This document shows positions 2,160 to 59,887 of a stretch of 64,000 nucleotides of DNA, piece by piece. How positions within the stretch are numbered: position 1 is the first letter of the stretch; every line of letters begins with the position of its first letter. The stretch is from Nanobdellota archaeon. GTDB taxonomy: Archaea; Nanobdellota; Nanobdellia; Woesearchaeales; GCA-2686295. Position numbers and translations under genes: made by a program. The DNA lies in assembly GCA_018819065.1 (NCBI GenBank), contig JAHJQL010000075.1, forward strand, positions 625-64,624. The letters run 5' to 3'. Below the pieces are notes generated by a model. That model searched no databases. It was given only the letters and a program-made list of their open reading frames with translations, and was not told where the DNA came from.

Positions 2160-2467
2160 TTTAACGCCCACCCTAACGAACAAAACTACTAAAACGAAAT
2201 GTCCCCCTTGATACTTGTTCTGGATGTATCGCTTCGCTTATTTGATTGAACACGAGCCACTAAAAATTACTTTGCGGACGCAAGTTTCCAGAACTCCACT
2301 TCGCTACGCACCCCGCTGCGCTCTCACTCCATTTCGTTCTGTTCAGGTCACTTAACACGTATTATATTCAATCGTCGTGTAGATTAATTAAAAGGGGGTT
2401 GCCGCCTTAGTCTCTTCGAGACAGATAGGAAAAACTTCGTTTTTCAAATTTATTAAAGTATGGCTCC
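2160..2467 (+). repeat. GC-rich structured intergenic element, copy R1 (family R1/R2/R3)
   Basis: GC-rich island in an AT-rich genome between convergent gene ends. It shares the exact 20-mer attatattcaatcgtcgtgt (2361-2380) with 7414-7433, followed by an AT-rich spacer, gggggttgccgcc, hairpin gtctc-ttc-gagac (2410-2422) and hairpin gaaaaac-ttc-gtttttc. Confidence 0.55.
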
Positions 2468-2875
2468 TTACTTTTCCTCAATAAACATGTCTTGTGGCAT
2501 ATAAGCAGCTTGAATCATATACTCGTCAGGATCTCTGATAAATAGAGATTCACTTCCATCTCTGTGTTTTTTTCTCTCATAATGGATATTTTTTCCGTTT
2601 AATTGTTCAATCAAATACTCCAAATCAGCAGGATTATCAGTTGTAAAACCAAAGTGATCAACTCCTTCTCTTGAACCACTGTGGGCACTTCTTTTAAGCC
2701 CAATAGATGTTCCATTTAGACCTAACATCATGATATTTTCTCCCACACTCCTTCTCTCCACATACAATCCTAACACGCTGAATAATCCTTCATAAAATTC
2801 TGCTGACTTTTCTGGGTTTTTCACACATAATGCTATGTGATTTAATCTATAACTCATTTTAATCTCCTCCGACAA
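2468..2875 (-). CDS. VOC/glyoxalase-bleomycin resistance family protein
   Basis: 135-aa ORF. LNHIALCVKNPEKSAEFY and GVDHFGF resemble the paired beta-alpha-beta-beta-beta metal-binding modules of glyoxalase I-type proteins. It overlaps the upstream radical SAM gene by 17 nt, suggesting an operon. Confidence 0.7.
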   Translation of the reverse strand: MSEEIKMSYRLNHIALCVKNPEKSAEFYEGLFSVLGLYVERRSVGENIMMLGLNGTSIGLKRSAHSGSREGVDHFGFTTDNPADLEYLIEQLNGKNIHYERKKHRDGSESLFIRDPDEYMIQAAYMPQDMFIEEK

Positions 2876-4478
2876 CCAATGGTTTGTTTTCAGAAAACTT
2901 GATTCCTGAAACTCTATAAAATTCCCTTGTATCTATTTCATCTTTTCTTAATTTCTGATAAGCATTTCTAACTTCACCAATTCTTCTTTGAATTCTAGCA
3001 TCTGCAATCAGTCTTAAACTAGCTCCGTCATTAATTCCTTCTATTAGCGGCTCTTCGTAAGTATGCACTTCATTTACACTTCCATCTGGATTTAATTTTG
3101 GGATAAAATAAGTTACTCTGCTTCTTTCTCTGTCAATATCTTTTTCTGCTACAAAATTAGGTTTAGGATAAACATAAGAATTTCCTTGTTCGTGCAGGAT
3201 ATTATATGCTTGCCATCTTGCCATATCTGATGTATCAAAATGCCCATCTAAAAAAGTGATTGCCTCACTAACCCTTTCAATAGGAACTGTCAATTCTGGA
3301 TAAGAGGGAGAGTGCATATTTACAATTGCTTTATACGGAATTACTCCTATTTCATAAGCAGCTTCACTAATAGCTCTCATTTTCTCAGCTGATTTTTGAG
3401 GATCATCTCTGTAAAAATTAATCCCTTCTTGAAGAGGCATTTGTAAATGAATACTAACTCCTGCTTCTTGTAGTCTTTCAGTTGCAATTCTTGCTTCGGG
3501 AGTTAATAACTGGTGTTCATCTGTTACATGGCAATTAAAATACAATTGCTTTTTTGCTTTTCCATTTCTGCCATTATTTTTTCTTCTAAAATCAGATAAT
3601 CTGCTAACTAAATCATCATTTATCTTATAGAACAATCCCTGATACACGGCAGAAGTACAAATTCTAACAGCTTTCAAATGCTCTGCTTTTCCCAGATGAT
3701 CAAGTATTTTTCCCATTGTGTCCGGAGAATACATCAATGGCTCTCCACCACTAATAATAACAGTATTGACTTCTGGATGTTGATTTAACCAATCTGTCAA
3801 TAATCTTGTTTGTTCTACTGCTCTTTGTTCTTGTAGATTTAATTCTTTTTTTAATTCTGCATATTTTGGATCAATATCTGCCAATGCAGACATTCCTAAT
3901 CTTGTCAATACACCTTTATAACATTCAGCACAACCAACAGGACAAAATTCTGTTATATTCTCAAGAACAGCATAATCAAACTTTCTTGAACCAAGATATT
4001 TGCTACCTTCTCTAGTAATTGCTCTGATTTGGTCTTGGCCTCTAAAAATTCCATATGGATCGAGACTATGTTTTTCTTTACCAGAATATAATTTTGGTAA
4101 ACTTGGAACATATTTCTTCATTGTAGAGCCGCCAAATAATACATTAAGAGGAAGAATACTCATCTCTCTTCCAGTTTCCAAAGATGCGCTGACACTTTCA
4201 ACATCTACTTCTTCATTTAATGAAGTCAAAGATTTCAAATCAGTTACTCTAAAAGCCATATGAAAAGCAGGAGTTTGCCATAAATCATTCCTATCAACAC
4301 CTAAAAAAGAAGCTGTTCTAGATACTAACTCATCTAAAGTCTCTCCTTTATCTTCGGGAACTTCAGCAGTTTCAAATCCATTTTTCTGAAGATAATAATT
4401 TCTAGCATAGCTATAAAAATCTCTTATTCCAATTTCCAATGCTTCTTGTTTAATTTTATCCAATCTCATTTTAACCAC
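2859..4478 (-). CDS. Radical SAM protein, KamA (lysine 2,3-aminomutase)-like
   Basis: 539-aa ORF with CxxxCxxC cluster CPVGCAEC and ISGGEPLM downstream, as in KamA-family aminomutases. Confidence 0.7.
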   Translation of the reverse strand: MVKMRLDKIKQEALEIGIRDFYSYARNYYLQKNGFETAEVPEDKGETLDELVSRTASFLGVDRNDLWQTPAFHMAFRVTDLKSLTSLNEEVDVESVSASLETGREMSILPLNVLFGGSTMKKYVPSLPKLYSGKEKHSLDPYGIFRGQDQIRAITREGSKYLGSRKFDYAVLENITEFCPVGCAECYKGVLTRLGMSALADIDPKYAELKKELNLQEQRAVEQTRLLTDWLNQHPEVNTVIISGGEPLMYSPDTMGKILDHLGKAEHLKAVRICTSAVYQGLFYKINDDLVSRLSDFRRKNNGRNGKAKKQLYFNCHVTDEHQLLTPEARIATERLQEAGVSIHLQMPLQEGINFYRDDPQKSAEKMRAISEAAYEIGVIPYKAIVNMHSPSYPELTVPIERVSEAITFLDGHFDTSDMARWQAYNILHEQGNSYVYPKPNFVAEKDIDRERSRVTYFIPKLNPDGSVNEVHTYEEPLIEGINDGASLRLIADARIQRRIGEVRNAYQKLRKDEIDTREFYRVSGIKFSENKPLVVGGD

Positions 4479-4577
4479 TTAATAGTAATATCACATAGAA
4501 GTATATAAATAGTTGTAGTCTTAATTAAGATGACACAATAGAAAGATTTAAATAAGGCCTTTCATATAATTAATATA

Positions 4578-5315
4578 ATGGCAGAAATTGACATTTTAGA
4601 GGATTTAGGACTTTCAGAAGCAGAAGCTAAAGTATATTTAGCTCTATTAGAAACAGGCTCTACTTTGGCAGGCCCCATAATAAAGAAAACAGGCCTACAT
4701 AGAGGTACAACTTACCAAATATTACAGAGATTGATTGAGAAAGGATTAGTCAGTTATGTAATAAAAGCAGGAAAAAGATATTTTGAAGCAACTGATCCAA
4801 ATAGGTTTTTGGCAATTTTAAAAGAGAAAGAACAAAAAATACAAGAAATCTTACCTTCCTTAATTCAGAAAAGAGAACTTGGAAAAGAAAAACAAGAAGT
4901 TAATGTATATTCTGGATACAAAGGAATTAAAACTGTATGTGAAAATATGCTTGAAGAACTAAAGGAAAGGGGAGAATATCTTGATTTTGGAGTTTCAGGA
5001 TTATTCAGAGATGTGATGGGACCATATTGGGATTTATGGCAAACAAAAAAGAAAAAATACAAGATAAAAGCTAAATGTATCTTTGATGAAATCTTAAAAG
5101 AAAAAAATCCCAATCTTTTAAAAGATTATTTTGGAGAAGCAAAATTTCATTCTAGTGAATTTAAGAGTTTAACAGACACAATAATATACAACGATAAAGT
5201 TGTTTTATTTATTTGGACAGCAAAACCCCCTATTGCTGTTATAATTCAAAATAAAGAAAATGCAGAGTCTTATAGAAATCAATTTAATTTAATGTGGAAA
5301 CATTCTAAGAAATAA
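4578..5315 (+). CDS. TrmB-family transcriptional regulator
   Basis: N-terminal wHTH LGLSEAEAKVYLALLETGSTLAGPIIKKTGLHRGTTYQILQRLIEKGLVSY is typical of archaeal TrmB. Confidence 0.8.
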   Translation: MAEIDILEDLGLSEAEAKVYLALLETGSTLAGPIIKKTGLHRGTTYQILQRLIEKGLVSYVIKAGKRYFEATDPNRFLAILKEKEQKIQEILPSLIQKRELGKEKQEVNVYSGYKGIKTVCENMLEELKERGEYLDFGVSGLFRDVMGPYWDLWQTKKKKYKIKAKCIFDEILKEKNPNLLKDYFGEAKFHSSEFKSLTDTIIYNDKVVLFIWTAKPPIAVIIQNKENAESYRNQFNLMWKHSKK

Positions 5316-5480
5316 CGGAGCCCCACTAATCTTCTTTTTTAGGAAAAAAGAAGCAAAAAAGGCGGCGGCAACCCAAATAAAATATAGACACGACGACTTT
5401 GAGTTTTCCCTTCGGGACATTGCACTAAAATCTCATCCCTTCGGGGAATATAACAGCGGAAGCCGTCCCGTAATTATTTT
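5316..5480 (-). repeat. GC-rich structured intergenic element, copy R2 (core inverted relative to R1/R3)
   Basis: The reverse complement of 5361-5399 reads gtcgtcgtgt-ctatattttattt-gggttgccgccgcc, matching the R1/R3 core. A 10-bp-stem hairpin cttctttttt-agg-aaaaaagaag lies at 5331-5353. The adjacent module 5410-5470 (cccttcggg, ttgcactaaaatc, cccttcgggg, ataaca) matches 7360-7410 in R3. Confidence 0.55.
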
Positions 5481-5655
5481 TATTGATTGCATATTAAATT
5501 AACAATTCATAAAAAAAAGCATTATATTCTTTTTAGCAGCCATTAGCTGCTTTTAATCTCCAAATTATGTAGAAAGTTTATATTGATTAAAATTATCTTT
5601 AAAGACTTGAACCAGTTTTGAGATTTCCTCTTTTGCTTGCTCTTTGTCAAACATT

Positions 5656-6936
5656 TTATTTTCTCTCCTTATTGAGCACGTAATAAGCCCCCCTATAAGA
5701 GCCAACTTTTTTGACATATTTGAATTTCAACAACTCGTTAATATCTGCGATTGAAGTCCCAAAAGAAGTATTGTTGAGTTCCATATACTTTTTAGTTTTA
5801 ATGGATTTATGTTTTTTCAGAAATTCAATGACTTTCTTTTGTCGCTCGTTTAAATCAGCATAGTCTTCTATTGGTTTCTGTTTTCCTTTTTGATTGTATA
5901 GCACAATACGGAAAAAATGTTCATATATCCCAAATTCTGGATCTCTTAAACCTTGTTCGCGCATAGAATTAATCATTCTTGGAACTCCAGAGCCAAGACC
6001 TTCTACATAACCATAATCACGTAATAATCGGTAAATGATGGGATTTCTTCGTACCGATAATGTCCCAAACAATTCTCGTGGCAACCCTATCGGTAAAGAG
6101 CCAGGACTTGTTAATTCAATCCGATTGCTAAAAAGATAAATCTGGATAGAATCTTTACTAAAATAATCCCTATGAGCAACTGCATTGACAATGGCTTCAC
6201 GCACAACATCAATGGGATACTCGTGTTTTTCTTCTCTTTTGGCTTTATCAGTTATTTCTATGCTTTTGGAGAGGTTCTTTTTCACAAAAGAAAGCGATTT
6301 TTCTATTGAACTTACAGGGTCATCTTGAATCATCTGATGAGAGATGATTTTTACAGGCTCTGTACCATCAAATTGTGCAAGTTTAATCTCAACTTGTGGG
6401 AAAAATTCGGCTGGCTCTTTTCCAAAGAATAGGAGAGTTGCATTTTTAATCTTTAAACTTCCATTTTTAGAGGCAAGTTTTGAACTAATGAGAAAATTCT
6501 CTACTGAATTATGTTTCAAGAAATCTTCATGACCGCGAACTTTCAGATACTCTTTTATTTTTTCAATTTCAATATCTTTAATTGTGGCATCGCTAGCAAT
6601 TTCATCAAAACAGAGAATTTGTTTACTTCTCAAGAAATCTACTAACTGATTACCCTCTATCTTCTTGAGGGTGCTTCCAACCTTCACATAAACTACACCT
6701 TGAAATGTGTGGAATGTATTGTCAATGGCTTTCTGAACAATAACTGCAATAATCTTTTTTGCATCAATAGTATAAACCTGAATTTGTGGAATAAGTGGCG
6801 GTGAAATTGTTTGTGCGACAGCTGAAATTTTCTGCTGTACTTTATCAACGTCCTCTTTAATTCCAACAATATTCTTTTTTGCATCAACGCCAACAATAAC
6901 CATGCCCCCGTAAGTATTAGCAAACCCGCACATCAA
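5656..6936 (-). CDS. AlbA_2 (Schlafen-like) / HATPase_c_4 putative DNA-binding regulator (RecG-like annotation class)
   Basis: 426-aa ORF. It has FANTYGGMVIVGVD (AlbA_2 core), REAIVNAVAHRDY (ATPase-like domain) and a C-terminal wHTH. The frame stays open 33 more codons upstream (to 7035) and encodes LEVIESGETQEVELKQSF, the usual AlbA_2 N-terminus, but with no ATG/GTG/TTG. Confidence 0.75.
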   Translation of the reverse strand: MMCGFANTYGGMVIVGVDAKKNIVGIKEDVDKVQQKISAVAQTISPPLIPQIQVYTIDAKKIIAVIVQKAIDNTFHTFQGVVYVKVGSTLKKIEGNQLVDFLRSKQILCFDEIASDATIKDIEIEKIKEYLKVRGHEDFLKHNSVENFLISSKLASKNGSLKIKNATLLFFGKEPAEFFPQVEIKLAQFDGTEPVKIISHQMIQDDPVSSIEKSLSFVKKNLSKSIEITDKAKREEKHEYPIDVVREAIVNAVAHRDYFSKDSIQIYLFSNRIELTSPGSLPIGLPRELFGTLSVRRNPIIYRLLRDYGYVEGLGSGVPRMINSMREQGLRDPEFGIYEHFFRIVLYNQKGKQKPIEDYADLNERQKKVIEFLKKHKSIKTKKYMELNNTSFGTSIADINELLKFKYVKKVGSYRGAYYVLNKERK

Positions 6937-7060
6937 CTTTGAGAATTCTTGTGAACTGTGGAAAGATTGCTTTAGCTCAACTTCTTGTGTTTCTCCGCTT
7001 TCAATTACTTCTAAAGTCTGGTCTTTGTCTATTTTCTATCAGTTACTTTTGATAATTAAT

Positions 7061-7169
7061 TGATACTAAATTGATAGTAATATATAAAACTTTCTACTCC
7101 TAAAAAGAACCATTGATGAGGATACTATCAAAATAATCTGATACTAAATGATACTAAATGATAATAATT
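7061..7169. promoter_or_regulatory. Decamer repeat cluster GATACTAAAT (tandem x3 at 7140-7169, further copies at 7061-7081 and 7121-7130)
   Basis: tgatactaaat / tgatagtaat at 7061-7081, ggatactatc at 7120-7129, and gatactaaat-gatactaaat-gataataatt in tandem at 7140-7169. The cluster lies directly upstream of the AlbA_2 gene on the minus strand. Confidence 0.45.
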
Positions 7170-7179
7170 AATAGTGTTT

Positions 7180-7521
7180 TCTCCCCCCTTTCTTCTTGTT
7201 TTCAAAGTAACGCTAATGCTCAAAAGATAAAACGAAACTCCCCCTGACGTATTAACAAAAAGAGCCTTCAGCTTTGATGAAACGAACTCCCCCTCGTCCT
7301 TCGGACATATAGTCTGCTTCGCAGAATTTATAGAAACGGAAATTTTACTTTGATTTTTTGCCTTCGGAATCGTTGCACTAAAAATCAATCCCTATCGGGA
7401 GAGCATAACATCGATTATATTCAATCGTCGTGTGGAATTATATTAGGGAGTTGCCACCTTAGTCCCTCTGGGACAGCTAGTCTTCGGCTTTGCCTCAGAA
7501 ATTTTATAGATAGAGCTTTGG
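7180..7521 (+). repeat. GC-rich structured intergenic element, copy R3
   Basis: It contains two acgaa(a)ctccccct motifs (7232-7246, 7282-7295), UUCG/UAUC tetraloop hairpins, ttgcactaaaaatc, the 20-mer attatattcaatcgtcgtgt (7414-7433), gggagttgccacc, and hairpin gtccc-tct-gggac (7462-7474) that covaries with R1. Confidence 0.55.
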
Positions 7522-8001
7522 CTAGACATCTATCCCGTGTTGTTTAAACCACTCACGCGTTGAAGGTTGAATACCCTTTGTATTTCCTTCTGCAAACATT
7601 TGAGCTTTTATTTTATACCCGAATGACGAGAAATATTCTTCTAATACTCTATTTGGTAAACTTCTAAAATCCATGCTTCGACCAGAAACACCAATGGAAT
7701 CTCTTTCATCATTAACGCTAATATCCCCTCCACCGAGAATAAGACCTTCTACCTTACATTTTCCACATACCTGACCATGAGTATAGGCATTACCCAATGC
7801 CCATACCTGAATGGTATTTTCAAGTGCAGATAATACAAATTTTCCTGTGTGTTTAGTACTCCATTCATCTTGCTGAGTTAGAAAATAATCTACTCCTTTA
7901 TAGTCTTGTCCAAAATTCCTTATTACAGGTGTAGCGTAATTAAGTGCCATAGTTTTTGTTATTACTATAAAGTTTATAAACCTTCCGAGAAATATAACCA
8001 A
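7522..8001 (-). CDS. Hypothetical protein (likely start at ATG 7950)
   Basis: 159-aa ORF starting at TTG. An internal ATG gives MALNYATPVIRNF. No motif recognised. It lies co-directionally downstream of the ADP-ribosylglycohydrolase gene. Confidence 0.5.
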   Translation of the reverse strand: MVIFLGRFINFIVITKTMALNYATPVIRNFGQDYKGVDYFLTQQDEWSTKHTGKFVLSALENTIQVWALGNAYTHGQVCGKCKVEGLILGGGDISVNDERDSIGVSGRSMDFRSLPNRVLEEYFSSFGYKIKAQMFAEGNTKGIQPSTREWFKQHGIDV

Positions 8002-8052
8002 AGCCCCTTGATTCTTGTTCTTGATTTCTCACTTTGTTCGTTTGCCCCATCT

Positions 8053-9250: not shown

Positions 9251-9425
9251 TAAAAAATAACTGCGAATAACTTTATACAAATAAGTTTATAATCTTACAG
9301 CTATTATTTTTATCGCAGTTGATGATGAGGTTATTCTCGTCTGAATTCATGATGACTAAGAACTGTCTGAGACTGCGGCTGTAAAAATAGAATGATTTTT
9401 ATACTCTTTTTATTTTATTCTTCAC

Positions 9426-22420: not shown

Positions 22421-22518
22421 CGAGTTTAAAGAGAGATGATTCGTATTTAAATGTTTAGATGGTTGACGTTATTCGTTTTCTATTATGAAAAATTAACAGC
22501 TAATAAAATTATTTTTTT

Positions 22519-22770
22519 ATTAAAAATCTCGATAGAGATTTTGTTTGGGTTTAATACTCAGAAATAATTTGTGATTTCTGGTACTAGAAATGTTCCATTT
22601 CTCTGTACCCCAACCTTTAGGTCGAGATTTTTAATTCAGAGAAATGTTTTTGCATTTCTCGAACCAGCAACTTTGTTGCTGTGTTCCAAAAATTCAACTT
22701 TTAAGATAGTCGAGCGTAATACCCCAACCTTCAGGTTGGGGATAGCCGACTATCATCGAATTTTTGTTAT
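22519..22770. repeat. 252-bp direct repeat, copy A (3' flank of tRNA-Arg)
   Basis: It aligns without indels to 23161-23412 (offset 642 nt), and I count 9 substitutions. It consists of consecutive hairpins, for example aaaatctc-gata-gagatttt, ggtac..gtacc, cagcaac-ttt-gttgctg and ccccaacc-ttca-ggttgggg nested in gatagtcg..cgactatc. Confidence 0.85.
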
Positions 22771-23123: not shown

Positions 23124-23160
23124 GTGTAATAATCAGAAAGTATCTCTTTTTTTAAATATT

Positions 23161-23412
23161 ATTAAAAATCTCAACAGAGATTTTGTTGGGGTTTAATACT
23201 CAGAAATAATTTGTGATTTCTGGTACTAGAAATGTTCCATTTCTCTGTACCCCGACCTTCAGGTTGAGATTTTTAATTCAGAGAAATGTTTTTGCATTTC
23301 TCGAACCAGCAACTTTGTTGCTGTGTTCCAAAAATTCGATTTTTAAGATAGTCGAGCGTAATACCCCAACCTTCAGGTTGGGGATAGCCGACTATCGTCG
23401 AATTTTTGTTAT
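23161..23412. repeat. 252-bp direct repeat, copy B (5' flank of tRNA-Arg)
   Basis: See copy A. The substitutions fall in hairpin loops (gata vs aaca) or improve or maintain pairing (caacc..ggtcg vs cgacc..ggttg). Confidence 0.85.
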
Positions 23413-32291: not shown

Positions 32292-32295
32292 TGTT

Positions 32296-32316
32296 TCACG
32301 CCGAGGTCGCACAACG
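32296..32316 (+). other. Duplicated tRNA-Ser 5' module (leader + acceptor 5' strand + D-stem), copy A
   Basis: tcacGCCGAGGTCGCAcAAC at 32296-32315 matches tcacGCCGAGGTCGCAtAAC at 32456-32475: 16 exact nt, one mismatch, then 3 more. No matching 3' acceptor strand or T-arm lies between the copies. Confidence 0.6.
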
Positions 32317-32459
32317 GGTTATGCTCCGTTGATGCGCAAAGTGCGGCACAAGACCGCACAAATAAAAAAATCACATTCACGCAGAGGTTGCATTAGTCAA
32401 AAAACAAAAAAGTTTTTTGGAAATGCTTCTCGTCGTTCGCTTCATTACATTACACTCAC

Positions 32460-32676
32460 GCCGAGGTCGCATAACCTGGTATTGCGCAGACAAGAAAAGA
32501 AATACTCTTTTTTGGCGTAAGATTGCTAAGGACTTGTTTGTCTTTATGAAACCAGCAGTACCGCACAGATCCTGTTCCTTCGGGAATTGTGGGTTCAAAC
32601 GACGATTTCGCTCGTCGGCAACGAGGGACAGCGTAAAGCTGTCCGAAGAAACGTTTTGAAAATCCCACCCTCGGCG
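32460..32676 (+). tRNA. tRNA-Ser-like gene with a T-loop (59/60) intron and an interrupted, unresolved anticodon arm (GCT candidate)
   Basis: GCCGAGG-TC-GCA-TAACCTGGTAT-TGC-G ... GTGGG-TTCAAA [intron 32600..32662] T-CCCAC-CCTCGGC-G. The acceptor and T stems are perfect. G73, a 3-bp D-stem with a long D-loop and a possible extra arm (GTTCC-TTCG-GGAAT) suggest class II Ser. The only Ser-compatible loop is TTGCTAA at 32523-32529. No contiguous 5-bp/7-nt anticodon arm exists. Confidence 0.6.
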
Positions 32677-32865
32677 TTTTCTCTTATTTTTGACGATTTT
32701 ATCGTCGATAAACTATTGTCAAAGTTCAACACAGTAGTTAGGTGTTGGCGTAATCTACATATAGCCGACATTAAAAAACAGGTCACTTTATGATCCTCTG
32801 AATTTTTTAATGAAATGGCGTTTTTTCGTAAAATACATAATAATAATACTCCAATAATATTACGC

Positions 32866-33000
32866 ATGATATACAATCACGTCATAAGGGTAAAACTAAC
32901 AAGAAGTCAACTTGAAAAAGTAAAGCAGGATGCAGAGCGAATGTGATTTCGATATCCGCCACAATATATACGATGGTTCGTACTTAACAAATCAACAGAA
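32866..33000 (+). pseudogene. Disrupted ribbon-helix-helix (CopG-like) gene remnant
   Basis: ATG at 32866 gives MIYNHVIRVKLTRSQLEKVKQDAERM* (RHH beta-strand plus helix 1 pattern). A shifted frame continues NVISISATIY..., resembling the usual G-S-S-YIR helix 2. Confidence 0.3.
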
Positions 33001-33105
33001 GAAAAAATAAATCTTATCTATTGGATGTTAAAACGGATAGAAAATCCTAATGCATGGAAAGAAGAAATAATAGAAGAATACAAAAGTAAAAACCTAAAGA
33101 TTTAA

Positions 33106-34848
33106 TTACCGAATTAAGTATTTACTATTCTCATAGTTTTGAAACTTATTTTTAATGTATTCTGTACTCATGACATCCATATGTGGTACCAAAAAAGTAA
33201 TATCTGGGAAAAAATAATGATCACCACTATAAATATAATTGTCACCGGTACGCCAAAAGTTGACTCCAAGGGCATTGAAGAAACAACCAGTGTTTGTTTT
33301 ACATGAGGTTCCAAGATTACAGTCCCTCAAATATATTCCTAATTCATTATATATTTTAGAATTTATAGACATAAAACAATTATCCCACGAATTTTGGTCA
33401 TCATCTTGAATATTAGTTGTACACGACTTCCATTGCATATAATAAGGGTAGCAAGGTTCAGCGGTATTGAGAGTGCCATTACACCACTTTGGGCATCCTT
33501 CTTTATCAATGTTGGGAGCTATAGAAACCGAATCATCATAAATAAGGGGTGTTGTACGGGTATATTCATCCGCTATACCTAATAAATGACCGTATTCGTG
33601 AGCAAATGCATACGGACTATCTAAATTCATAAGTTTACCGCCAGTATTTACTCCTGATTTTATGTAAACCGCTTGATCCATATCAGTCTTAGATAAATCA
33701 ATCCCACAAATTTCTTTTGTTAAATATATAAAAGTTTCAGTAGCATCTCCTGGTGCCTGAGTTTCTGAATCAGCTATTTGAAACGTTTTAGGTGTTGGCC
33801 AAATATAATATACATCAAAAATATTAGAATATGATTTATAAGGCTCAACAAAAAACAGACCGACTTTTTCATAAGTTGGTAAGTCAGGAGCAAGTCCTAT
33901 GGCGATTTGTATAGTTTTATTTAACTCTGATTCAATTGCTGATAGCCTAGCTGCCATAAATACAATATTAATTTTTTTATTGGCTGAACCTGAATAAACA
34001 TTTTTACAGGAATAATCAGTCTTATCCAATAACTCAATGTTTGTTGTTGTATAATAAGTATTTCCAGATATATCCTTAATTTCAATCTTAAACTTCGCGT
34101 TTCCTTTAGACAATGTAGATACGAGAATGTTCCCACTAAAATCTGTGGTCATAAAGTATTTACCGTTATAAGATGATACGCCGACAGCTCCGAGTTGAAT
34201 ACTAACACTTTCAACATTACCTTGTTCATCCTCAACAGATAGAGTGTATTCATTCAGAATATTAAACTTATCATAATCATAACTTAACCTTAAATAAACA
34301 GGCGTTTCAGTATTCAAAAAAGCAATATTTGTATAAGTTCCTCTAAATCTTAAACTACACTCATCATTGTTACACGCTATTGATTTAGTACTACAAGGAT
34401 TTTTCGGTTGCGTTAATTGAGTAGTGCACCAATCCGTATTCCAATGCAATCCAATTGGTAAAATATCTCTACTATCTATAATGCCATCTGCATTAGTGTC
34501 CAAAGAAGGATTATACAATAAAGAACCACAAGTAGCACCATAAGATGAAGATATCCCATATCGAAGCTTTTGACACGCTTCAATATTTGTTTGTTCGTTT
34601 GATTGTACTGCGCCACCAACAGTATCTCGAGACACCAAGGTTTGCGAAGACACATTTATTACAACCGTATGTGAATTTAAAAACGTTAAAGAAACCATAA
34701 TGATAATAGCTATGACCGCTACGATACCTACAACAATAAATCCTTTTTCTTCACGCATATAATCACCATCTAACAAATAAATAATGCCTAAAGATATAAT
34801 TGCTATATGAAGCATAAGTAGTTTATAAATATGTTGTTTTTGAATCAT
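33106..34848 (-). CDS. Secreted/membrane-anchored zinc metallopeptidase, M64 (IgA-peptidase)-like, with dockerin/EF-hand-like loop
   Basis: N-terminal TM helices, DTNADGIIDSRD calcium-loop-like motif, and HExxH embedded in FAHEYGHLLGIADEY (M64-type HExGHxxxxLxDEY). Confidence 0.7.
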   Translation of the reverse strand: MIQKQHIYKLLMLHIAIISLGIIYLLDGDYMREEKGFIVVGIVAVIAIIIMVSLTFLNSHTVVINVSSQTLVSRDTVGGAVQSNEQTNIEACQKLRYGISSSYGATCGSLLYNPSLDTNADGIIDSRDILPIGLHWNTDWCTTQLTQPKNPCSTKSIACNNDECSLRFRGTYTNIAFLNTETPVYLRLSYDYDKFNILNEYTLSVEDEQGNVESVSIQLGAVGVSSYNGKYFMTTDFSGNILVSTLSKGNAKFKIEIKDISGNTYYTTTNIELLDKTDYSCKNVYSGSANKKINIVFMAARLSAIESELNKTIQIAIGLAPDLPTYEKVGLFFVEPYKSYSNIFDVYYIWPTPKTFQIADSETQAPGDATETFIYLTKEICGIDLSKTDMDQAVYIKSGVNTGGKLMNLDSPYAFAHEYGHLLGIADEYTRTTPLIYDDSVSIAPNIDKEGCPKWCNGTLNTAEPCYPYYMQWKSCTTNIQDDDQNSWDNCFMSINSKIYNELGIYLRDCNLGTSCKTNTGCFFNALGVNFWRTGDNYIYSGDHYFFPDITFLVPHMDVMSTEYIKNKFQNYENSKYLIR

Positions 34849-35187
34849 AATAGGAAGCTATATCGACTGTAAGTAATTAACAAATAAATTACATTTTTTA
34901 TACTGAAACCTTTGTAGCTTTTTTTACTAGACATTATTTAAACTCTAATATCTCTTATTCATTAAAAGTTATTGTCCTCCCCCTCGAGAAAAAGCTACAT
35001 TTAAATAGGAAAATGCTTTATCTAGATGAAAGAATGTCAAGAATTGTAAATCGAAAATATACAAATAGTTCTTGATCATGTTCAGAAATTGCGTCAAAAC
35101 AATTTCTGACATATAAAAATTATAGAGAATGTCAGATAAACACAGGTACTAAACCCGGCATGCACCCTCGGCGTATTTTTTTTTAAA

Positions 35188-36502: not shown

Positions 36503-36643
36503 AGCGGGGTAGGGCAGTCAGGAACGACAAGACTAATTGTTGCTGTAAGTGCCCGTCGGGCTCATATCAAAACTTCGTTTTGGACCTCCAAAACAAGTTT
36601 GTAGGTAACCCGAAGGTCGATGGTTCAAATCCATCCCCCGCTA
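36503..36643 (+). tRNA. Initiator tRNA-Met(CAT) with two introns (D-loop about 25 nt; canonical 37/38, about 41 nt)
   Basis: AGCGGGG-TA-GGGC-AGTCAGGAAC[..]-GCCC-G-TCGGG-CTCATA [36567..36607] A-CCCGA-AGGTC-GATGG-TTCAAAT-CCATC-CCCCGCT-A. The A1:U72 pair and the three G:C pairs closing the anticodon stem are archaeal initiator hallmarks. 35 nt between the D-stem strands implies an insertion. Confidence 0.85.
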
Positions 36644-59579: not shown

Positions 59580-59644
59580 TATCTTTTCACCCAATTAATT
59601 TGAATATATAACAAAGAGACGAAGTCCCCCTCTCAAACCACTCC

Positions 59645-59887
59645 TTAACTCATAATCCTTTCTTCTTCACACATCTCTTCCGCTTCCCCCACTTCCACAA
59701 CCACCCCCTCTTCCCTCCCTGTTACGAGTTCATAGCACGTCTGTTTGTCAAACATTGTTTCTCTTTGCTGTGCTACTTCTTTTTCTAAGATTATTATTCT
59801 AATCGTTGCAATCATTAATATTATTGCTATTATTACTGCAATTATTACTATTATTTTTTTACTTACCTTTTCAGAAGCTTTCGTCAT
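59645..59887 (-). CDS. Small membrane protein with acidic C-terminus
   Basis: 80-aa ORF with one TM helix (IIVIIAVIIAIILMIATIRIIIL). Confidence 0.4.
   Translation of the reverse strand: MTKASEKVSKKIIVIIAVIIAIILMIATIRIIILEKEVAQQRETMFDKQTCYELVTGREEGVVVEVGEAEEMCEEERIMS

Follow-up and report, generated by a model that had tools for sequence, protein, structure and literature searches.

Probable mobile gene cassettes with dif-like ends, and a candidate role for the host recombinase XerA, in a Woesearchaeales archaeon

The window analyzed here is a 64,000-nt stretch of DNA from a Nanobdellota archaeon (Woesearchaeales; GenBank assembly GCA_018819065.1, contig JAHJQL010000075.1, positions 625 to 64,624). 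Near its left edge a 5.8-kb island of accessory genes lies between a DNA methylase gene and an ADP-ribosylglycohydrolase gene. VOC/glyoxalase, radical-SAM, TrmB and AlbA_2 genes and a short open reading frame (ORF) in this island are interspersed with three noncoding elements, R1, R2 and R3. A first-pass annotation had described these as a three-copy family of GC-rich, hairpin-rich sequences and had offered small-RNA genes, 3'-UTR or terminator modules, and recombination or boundary sites of mobile cassettes as possible readings. On the evidence presented below, we hold it to be somewhat more probable than not that R1–R3 are ends and junctions of mobile gene cassettes that are moved by the host tyrosine recombinase XerA.

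The islands stand out by composition, with a GC content of 0.42–0.52 in 100–150 nt windows against 34% for the window as a whole (mean 0.338). As had been stated, no convincing ORF covers them: R1 and R2 are free of ORFs that would span them, and R3 is merely touched by a pair of short ORFs of 86 and 65 aa, both with TTG starts. In blastn comparisons R1 (2353–2428) and R3 (7406–7480) are 79% identical over 76 nt (E 2.6e-12), and R2 (5396–5458) and R3 (7347–7413) 78% over 67 nt (E 5e-7). A gapped alignment of R1 and R3 spans about 300 nt with z = 16.5 relative to shuffles. The exact 20-mer ATTATATTCAATCGTCGTGT reported at 2361–2380 and 7414–7433 could be verified, and the pattern TCGTCGTGT-N-GGGNGTTGCC occurs twice compared to 0.00 expected occurrences. 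The relatedness of the three copies was therefore upheld, and a fourth related piece was added: module C, with 78% identity over 41 nt between 2204–2244 and 8004–8044 (E 4e-4). Since module C recurs at 8004–8045, direct repeats enclose the 5.8-kb island. Two details required correction. The AT-rich spacers of the window cores measure 12–13 nt instead of 13–17 nt, and the cores lie about 40–45 nt from the neighboring stop codons and not at or a few nucleotides beyond them.

To place these elements in a wider context, R1, R2 and R3 were condensed into a search pattern: TCGTCGTGT, followed by two unconstrained bases, eight A/T positions and GGG..TTGCCRCC. By our rough estimate its information content is about 44 bits, and about 0.1 chance matches are expected. 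The pattern matched 57 stretches in JGI metagenome contigs, all of low GC content and with similarity reaching far beyond the pattern. The family thus clearly exceeds chance expectation. Many of the samples are groundwater, including Hainich assemblies with '01um' in the contig names. Scans of viral contigs gave nothing related to the elements, and a loose pattern scan of genome contigs gave only chance matches in GC-rich bacteria. According to the names of NCBI homologs, some of which are recorded as Nanoarchaeota, the family is specific to Woesearchaeota/Pacearchaeota-like DPANN archaea.

Two end types were distinguished. From outside to inside each end consists of a dif-like site, box L (TCGTCGTGT), 12–14 AT-rich nt and box R (GGGGGTTGCCGCC); within the dif-like site a variable arm points outward, followed by a 6–8 nt spacer and the conserved arm TTATATTCAA toward the cargo. 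Type I ends, to which R1 and R3 belong, add a covarying hairpin and follow the consensus ...TTAATCGCGATG TTATATTCAA TCGTCGTGT AGATTTATTAAAA GGGGGTTGCCGCC TTAG-hairpin-AGATAG. With the core profile, most loci, and the window too, were seen to hold a second core copy in inverted orientation, 0.45–3.2 kb downstream of the first one. This second core type has its own profile (E 1e-20 to 1e-35). These type II ends, represented by R2, add a 58-nt module of three hairpins, module B. Toward the cargo they read TTAATCGCTG TTATATTC [TCCC-GTTA-GGGA] [ TTGAGTTTT AGTGCAACG TCCC-GAA-GGGA AAACTCAA ] AG TCGTCGTGT CTATAGTTTTTTCT GGGGGTTGCCGCC. In 34 sources a type I and a type II end converge at a distance of no more than 4 kb, and in 10 sources a type II end abuts a type I end as the junction of two cassettes.

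The anatomy of the window copies is in accordance with this scheme (Table 1). Module C copy 1 forms the outer part of a structured 'pad' that precedes the R1 type I end; the module also occurs 100–200 nt upstream of type I ends in loci L145, L160, L176 and L177. The R1 dif-like site shows the layout of variable arm, 6-nt spacer and conserved arm (X'). A comparison with L129, which carries a VOC gene of 76% identity, delimits the element on the inner side: the first 46 nt past the stop codon are common to both, an A/T hairpin included, and the sequences part at 2425, while the R1/R3 similarity stops at 2428. As the homology of the VOC 3' flank ends where the similarity of R1 to R3 ends, the element is distinct from the 3' flank of the gene. 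Contigs with more distant VOC homologs showed ordinary terminators and no element.

Table 1. Coordinates of the cassette-related features in the window.
Feature	Position	Strand	Basis
Module C copy 1 (CCCCCTTGATACTTGTTCTGGATG...)	2204–2250	+	nhmmer E 6e-10; 78% identical to 8004–8044
R1 dif-like site: AGGTCACTTAA / CACGTA / TTATATTCAAT	2345–2372	+	read from sequence
R1 type I core: box L TCGTCGTGT (2372–2380), AT-rich spacer (2381–2393), box R GGGGGTTGCCGCC (2394–2406)	2372–2406	+	nhmmer core profile E 1.8e-19
R1 hairpin P1 (GTCTC-TTC-GAGAC) and AGATAG, inner limit of the conserved end	2410–2428	+	family covariation
Cassette 1 cargo interval	2433–5356		Pfam; gene calls in L122; interval between convergent ends
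VOC/glyoxalase gene	2468–2857	-	Pfam
Radical-SAM gene	2859–4469	-	Pfam
TrmB regulator gene	4578–5315	+	Pfam
R2 type II core, inverted: box R GGCGGCGGCAACCC (5361–5374), AT-rich spacer, box L ACACGACGA (5388–5396)	5361–5396	-	type II nhmmer E 3e-25 over 5357–5458
R2 module B, three nested/adjacent hairpins	5397–5445	-	covarying alignment of 25 copies
R2 dif-like site: conserved arm GGGGAATATAA (5443–5453), spacer CAGCGG (5454–5459), degenerate outer arm	5443–5470	-	read from sequence
AlbA_2/HATPase_c_4 gene between the R2 and R3 junctions, no intact bounding ends	5656–6933	-	Pfam; end map
Module C-like stretch left of R3, weak	7184–7214	+	blastn 74%, 31 nt, to 2203–2233, E ~1
R3 type II end remnant: decayed box L and spacer (7327–7347), module B (7348–7397)	7327–7397	-	type II nhmmer E 8e-14 over 7347–7417; R2 alignment
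R3 dif-like site: GGAGAGCATAA / CATCGA / TTATATTCAAT	7398–7425	+	read from sequence
R3 type I core: TCGTCGTGT (7425–7433), AT-rich spacer, GGGAGTTGCCACC (7446–7458)	7425–7458	+	nhmmer E 2.5e-16
R3 hairpin P1 (GTCCC-TCT-GGGAC) and AGCTAG	7462–7480	+	sequence; family covariation
142-aa ORF, no Pfam hit; cargo that follows the type I end of R3	7522–7950	-	gene call
Module C copy 2, direct repeat of 2204–2250	8004–8045	+	nhmmer E 7e-9; blastn E 4e-4

R2 carries its core inverted and with a shorter G run beside a module that keeps the R3 orientation, as had been described; this second module is module B of the type II end, read on the other strand. The right flank of R2, AGCGGA.GCCGTCCC, was also found in L169. 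R1 and R2 bound the VOC/radical-SAM/TrmB cassette (cassette 1). The inverted pair recognized there in the first-pass annotation is the same arrangement that recurs around unrelated cargo in the 34 sources. R3 is a junction, composed of a decayed type II end, a dif-like site and a type I end leading into the 142-aa ORF. Its dif-like site comprises two inverted arms of about 11 bp and a 6-nt spacer, and the same minimal junction is present in L160, L172 and L185. The proposed bracketing of the AlbA_2 gene by R2 and R3 thus holds only loosely, as R3 is a junction and the gene occupies a spacer region with a junction on either side.

The window sequence itself recurs at 99.9% identity in three NCBI contigs of metagenome-assembled genomes, an ENA assembly and a Logan assembly. 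Because the contigs with the same genes (L121–L127) are 99.9% identical, they are uninformative on variation. The known contig reaches only about 620 nt beyond the window on the left, and via synteny of a phosphatidylserine decarboxylase homolog no empty site for the island was found.

Pairing within the hairpins is conserved. In 25 copies of module B 97% of the cells are paired, and 11 of 15 pairs changed on both sides; none of 500 shuffles reached a pairing as high, and shifting the partner by one column collapses the signal. The type I hairpin covaries likewise (GTCC/GGAC, GTGC/GCAC, GTCAC/GTGAC, GTCTC/GAGAC, ATCC/GGAT), so the compensatory change between R1 and R3 noted earlier (GTCTC/GAGAC versus GTCCC/GGGAC) is real and borne out across the family. 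Among 367 cells of the conserved stems there are 351 Watson–Crick, 5 G-T and 7 C-A pairs. Since the pairs are almost purely Watson–Crick and G-T is no commoner than C-A, there is no sign of an RNA-specific strand. The conservation of hairpins is confined to specific short ones. This part of the 'hairpin-rich' description stood; for the whole elements it did not, as folding energies on both strands gave z values of -1.6 to +0.7 relative to shuffles, none of them significant.

These data bear directly on the idea that R1–R3 are small-RNA genes with their own promoter, starting at GGGGGUUGCC, or 3'-UTR or terminator modules of their neighbors. TATA-like AT-rich stretches upstream of box R, cTTCGg loops on one strand, the covarying hairpins and the position of all three window cores behind stop codons would agree with it. 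The unremarkable folding energies and the scarcity of wobble pairs argue against a transcript, and R1–R3 gave no Rfam 15 match: no family scored at its gathering threshold anywhere in the window, and relaxing to E<=10 between 1900 and 8200 yielded chance-level matches only. ARAGORN found no tRNA match in R1–R3 either. Moreover, conservation is equal in the putative promoter and in the 'RNA', the putative promoter lies in inverted orientation at the opposite end, and R2 would terminate 14 nt past its 'start'. Across the family the adjacent gene shows its start as often as its stop, on either strand. By our own count a gene start and not a stop lies next to the type I end in 20 of 34 cassettes, at a distance of 21–98 nt; for this reason the 'follows a stop codon' pattern of the window is not general. 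We therefore consider both the small-RNA and the terminator reading very improbable.

The cargo is highly varied. Cassette intervals hold 1–4 ORFs on either strand from about 31 unrelated families, and most loci carry a single cassette. Encoded products include SAM methyltransferases, a DNA methylase beside an ORF without Pfam match, Asp/Glu racemase, an APH-type phosphotransferase, glycosyltransferase, cytidine deaminase, nucleotidyltransferase, phosphodiesterase, Orn/DAP decarboxylase, B12-radical SAM and Lrp/AsnC proteins, cystathionine lyase together with a PLP enzyme, an AsnA-like protein and several membrane or secreted proteins of unknown function. A Pfam scan of 29 representative proteins revealed no recombinase or transposase among them. 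Side by side with this, an N6_N4 methylase with an NmeDI_C domain (161–2158, + strand) adjoins the cassette region at the window edge, and in L197 (1368–3954) DpnII and two methylases lie inside such a region. Together with the AlbA_2/Schlafen gene, these restriction-modification genes suggest that cassette regions double as defense islands.

All-against-all blastn comparison revealed six sets of cassettes that share 83–90% identity and lie in loci with unrelated flanks. They comprise an APH cassette (L162/L169/L183), a deaminase cassette (L138/L150), a methyltransferase cassette (L146/L176/L191) and three more. Conversely, L143 or L145 and L183 have similar ends and different cargo. Across the cassette sets the conserved arm and box L are 0.84–1.00 identical and the opposite arm 0.91–1.00, whereas in the 30 nt outside the ends identity is 0.13–0.50 in six of seven pairs, with the drop within about 6–36 nt. 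The seventh pair, L145/L163, has its pad in common, and its outside identity stays at 0.77. On both sides of the cassettes the homology parts in or beside the 6–8 nt spacer. The inverted pair R1/R2, the recurrence of this arrangement around unrelated cargo in 34 sources and the occurrence of the same cassettes in unrelated flanks strongly support the earlier suggestion of recombination or boundary sites of mobile cassettes.

A non-autonomous transposon with long terminal inverted repeats was considered as an explanation, in which a transposase encoded elsewhere binds boxes L and R and the likeness to dif is incidental. Inverted ends of 45–110 nt do flank cargo without a recombinase, and the two boxes are the most conserved parts. 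The breakpoints, however, lie outside the boxes at the dif-like spacer, and no target-site duplication was found outside the inverted ends. The sole direct repeat, 16 nt (GATTCAACTCAATCGT) across both junctions of L162, overlaps the recombinase arm. No transposase was noticed in the loci, where the search covered the tyrosine-recombinase motif and XerA and most flanking ORFs are unannotated. Taking into account also the strong enrichment of xerA nearby (see below), a transposon appears improbable, if less so than the other alternatives discussed here.

Cassettes are often separated by 'pads', which are bounded by variable arms and hold variable hairpins and module C. Outside type II ends (L138 1100–1290, L145 2593–2700, L183 2430–2560) the pads themselves are small palindromic units of the form TTGAATATAAC-ATCGCG-ATTAAGAGAAGT ... 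ACTTCTCTTAAT-CGCGAT-GTTATATTCAA with variable hairpins inside. They may represent an alternate module type or a site-targeting miniature element.

As a separate observation, the contigs L136 and L171 are otherwise 99.9% identical and differ by a replacement (L136 4674–4876 versus L171 8040–8487) that extends from inside the 5' end of xerA to 10 nt before the type I core. The replacement may reflect a true rearrangement or a chimeric assembly. Since it starts inside a gene and may be a chimera, it was not used as evidence of rearrangement.

The site at which homology breaks resembles archaeal dif. In minimal junctions (R3 7398–7425; L160, L172, L185) the arm TTATATTCAA(T) and its partner (A)TTGAATATAA are 6 nt apart, for example GAGAATATAA CAGCGA TTATATTCAA in L185. 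The dif site of T. kodakarensis is TTTTGATATAA TGTACC TTATATGACAA, with TAA-N6-8-TTA as its most conserved feature (PMC11840125), and archaeal dif shows the same layout of arms around a spacer and is flanked by conserved inverted repeats (PMC2958812). The motif TAA-N6-8-TTA was found at 26 of 51 type I ends (51%) and 20 of 23 type II ends (87%), compared to 9% of random positions. From these counts it follows that both cassette ends carry a dif-like site with the conserved arm inward and the variable arm outward.

XerA normally resolves chromosome dimers at dif. Its homologs were located by motif screen, Pfam and phmmer. XerA-like tyrosine recombinases (PF00589 and PF13495, 270–300 aa) are encoded in 10 of the 57 loci, 9 of them distinct, within 298 kb. 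Assuming one xerA per genome of about 1 Mb, about 0.3 would be expected there, which corresponds to a roughly 30-fold enrichment of xerA near the ends. In 8 of 9 loci xerA is located outside the type I end and divergent from it, and it directly adjoins this end in three distinct contexts (L136/L171, L138 and L153). In L141, L162, L182 and L184 the stretch that separates xerA from the type I end contains no clear decayed junction. Close homologs of these recombinases are named Nanoarchaeota or Pacearchaeota. In five further contexts that were found starting from XerA, housekeeping genes (topoisomerase I, Dus, RNase H) follow xerA and small accessory genes precede it. One of them, L197, has a cassette array directly upstream of xerA, with type I and type II ends, a DpnII restriction-modification system and an acetyltransferase gene, that reaches up to xerA.

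One pair of loci shows an empty and an occupied site. L193 (empty) and L138 (occupied) encode XerA proteins of 78% identity and are about 90% alike from the spacer CTACAGA through TTATACGATATAAA to xerA; beyond the spacer they are unrelated. To the left of the spacer L193 reads GGGAGCGCGCGATTTCATTTAA and L138 reads ACACGACGATTGAATATAA, the latter preceded by box R and the deaminase cassette. As judged from the two sequences, this break would be the expected trace of a strand-exchange insertion in the spacer of an xerA-adjacent dif-like site.

The same pair speaks against a fixed chromosomal architecture, in which the elements would be insulator or boundary sequences like those around archaeal dif and exchange would occur by homologous recombination only. 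Conserved inverted repeats flank archaeal dif (PMC2958812), domain boundaries of T. kodakarensis are formed by the sequences around its dif (PMC11840125), and the conserved ends could act as short homology. Yet only about 45–110 nt of homology is available per side, the breaks are sharp at the spacer and not spread through the ends, L193 and L138 part exactly there, and three copies within 5.3 kb are hard to reconcile with such a role. We consider this explanation unlikely.

Three independent assemblies (L198 1–333, L199 1–168, L200 1–111) end 110–330 nt upstream of xerA, at or just past the dif-like site, which hints at repeats there or at heterogeneity of the population.

The divergent recombinase gene also recalls integrons. 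In an integron-like system the junction (box R/box L ... box L/box R) would fold single-stranded as a giant attC for an integron-type integrase. Known attC sites carry RYYYAAC ... GTTRRRY core sites in an imperfect palindrome of 57–141 nt. In both cases paired boxes surround an unpaired spacer and a variable structured part: on each side of the junction, from the cargo outward, an R box, an unpaired AT-rich spacer and an L box follow each other, and the one-sided extra module and variable tip are reminiscent of the extrahelical bases and variable terminal structure of attC. The covarying stems almost without wobble pairs fit as well, and small, very diverse accessory cargo beside a recombinase gene that is divergent from the cassettes, like intI, is common to both systems. 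Against these similarities, the RYYYAAC/GTTRRRY consensus is missing, the boxes being GGCGGCAACCCCC / GGGGGTTGCCGCC instead, and junctions of about 130–300 nt are far larger than attC. Five of seven recombinases reach the 220-bit cut-off of the XerA_Arch equivalog (NCBIfam), whereas the integron-integrase model TIGR02249 gives 178–216 bits in two split stretches, below its cut-off of 265 bits. Because this match is split and sub-cut-off, the recombinases are XerA-type enzymes without the IntI-specific insert. The cassettes studied here often carry several genes, which have promoters of their own and lie in both orientations, in contrast to the short ORFs of generally the same orientation in integron arrays, and the archaeal integrons described so far carry canonical attC (PMC9668308). 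An integron in this sense is therefore an unlikely explanation.

Split-tRNA halves, tRNA-derived att sites, origin recognition boxes, template/variable repeats of diversity-generating retroelements and IS200/IS605 ends with omega RNA were also tried as candidates. They were dropped, as their defining motifs or partner genes are lacking.

We therefore return to cassettes moved by XerA. In the mechanism we propose, host XerA would exchange strands in the 6–8 nt spacer of dif-like sites. Cassettes, each including both conserved arms, the boxes and the hairpin module, would thereby be cut out and inserted at another such site. Targets would include the dif-like site just upstream of xerA, and cassettes would also be swapped between genomes. 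Boxes and hairpins are probably accessory architecture, serving for example synapsis, binding of a partner protein or insulation of the cassette.

Several points weigh against this assignment. Excision, circles and XerA binding are predictions at this stage. Known Xer sites have nothing that corresponds to boxes L and R, the most conserved parts, and a different enzyme could have its true site there. A clear TAA in the outer arm is missing from half of the type I ends, and spacers of 7–8 nt exceed the canonical 6. As the sites flanking a cassette are inverted, simple recombination would invert and not excise it. Family elements are present in only one of the five XerA-seeded contexts, and a search for the tyrosine-recombinase motif and for XerA homologs detected no xerA in the 64-kb window.

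The inversion-versus-excision puzzle is shared with the dif modules of Acinetobacter, which resemble the archaeal cassettes in further respects. According to PMC6449649 and PMC13141974, pdif modules are discrete gene modules without a recombinase of their own, bounded by two inverted Xer-type sites with one conserved and one variable arm each; a given module recurs in several contexts, and modules that differ in content share similar ends. Pads, with variable arms inward, alternate with regions of inward conserved arms as pdif C and D modules do. In contrast, the archaeal cassettes lie on chromosome-like contigs and not on Rep_3 plasmids, would use a single XerA-type enzyme instead of bacterial XerC/XerD, have spacers of 6–8 nt that are not strictly 6, and carry metabolic, defense and surface genes in place of antibiotic resistance genes. 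Their sites are backed by conserved boxes (TCGTCGTGT ... GGGGGTTGCCGCC) and covarying hairpins, both of which pdif modules lack.

Integrative mobile elements exploiting Xer (IMEX), such as CTX/TLC phages and the gonococcal genetic island, also lack a recombinase of their own; by means of a dif-like site they insert into the dif of the host. The L138 cassette lies at an xerA-adjacent dif-like site, a candidate for the functional dif, with the break at the spacer; the window copies are not next to xerA. IMEX are phages or large islands with one site each, whereas the archaeal cassettes measure 0.5–3 kb, have two inverted ends and form arrays. Compared with archaeal dif itself, the cassette sites share arms and a TAA-N6-TTA core with T. 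kodakarensis dif and flanking conserved inverted repeats with dif of Thermococcales and M. stadtmanae, and in some archaea xerA adjoins dif. Archaeal dif was identified as a single site per chromosome; cassette sites are many per region (three in 5.3 kb of the window), have one variable arm and bound mobile cargo.

In the literature searched, no description of archaeal Xer-exploiting elements or of dif-module shuffling in archaea was found, and the core sequence had no match there. The passages on Xer systems and archaeal tyrosine recombinases that a keyword search of reviews returned make no mention of archaeal IMEX.

Apart from the cassettes, the window contains other structured loci. The archaeal nature of the host is evident from a C/D-box sRNA, TrmB and an intron-bearing tRNA in the window. 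TrmB and Lrp/AsnC regulators were identified by Pfam, and the closest named homologs of the phosphatidylserine decarboxylase belong to Candidatus Woesearchaeota and Nanoarchaeota. The canonical C/D-box sRNA (9314–9377, +) has a terminal stem CGCAGT/ACTGCG and C, D', C' and D boxes; it lies below the Rfam gathering thresholds, with a best score of 32 bits against snoR38 (E 0.33). At default settings ARAGORN found no tRNA in the 64-kb window. A tRNA-Tyr(GTA) with a 54-nt intron (36503–36643, +) was found in a relaxed run only and was missed by the default run and by the Rfam tRNA model. By eye, a tRNA-like gene with an insert of about 65 nt within the T-loop was recognized, GTGGGTTCAAAC[...]CCCACCCTCGGCG (32293–32360, 32452–32680, 35130–35176). 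Its 5' part is duplicated 160 nt upstream, and a matching 3' end (CACCCTCGGCG and a T-run) follows 2.5 kb downstream, so that the pieces at 32293–35176 may be multi-intron or split tRNA genes. Two direct repeats of 254 nt and 96% identity (22517–22770 and 23159–23412) surround a 390-nt GC-rich island (<=56% GC), whose minus strand shows an anticodon arm and a T arm like those of a tRNA; the island also has the closing stem GTACGGACCTG/CAGGTCCGTG. Finally, a C-rich noncoding island with 53% GC at 59606–59790 contains the motif TCCCCCT, as do R1 and R3.

More tentatively, and in our estimation with the odds against it, the region upstream of xerA in Woesearchaeota/Pacearchaeota-like archaea might serve as a platform for integron-like acquisition, operated by the housekeeping XerA. 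Capture of cassettes would take place at the xerA-adjacent dif-like site, followed by their spread to secondary sites, and the L/R boxes together with the hairpin module would build a structure, of folded DNA or with a partner protein, through which XerA is permitted to act beyond dimer resolution. If all this holds true, archaea would have mobile elements of a new class, and Xer would be subject to a novel type of control. The conserved boxes and covarying hairpins beside each site point towards an accessory mechanism. Cassettes moved by XerA would extend Xer-exploiting elements, especially shuffling of the dif-module type, from bacteria to archaea. For mining cassettes from metagenomes, the tags TCGTCGTGT-N13-GGGGGTTGCCGCC and TTATATTCAA can be used.

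The genomes of DPANN archaea are tiny, these organisms rely on hosts, and the ways in which they acquire and exchange accessory genes are poorly understood. Cassettes that borrow XerA would offer them a cheap route that does without a recombinase gene of its own. Among the cargo of the cassettes are genes for restriction-modification, methyltransferases, aminoglycoside-type phosphotransferases, nucleotidyltransferases, surface proteins and amino-acid metabolism.

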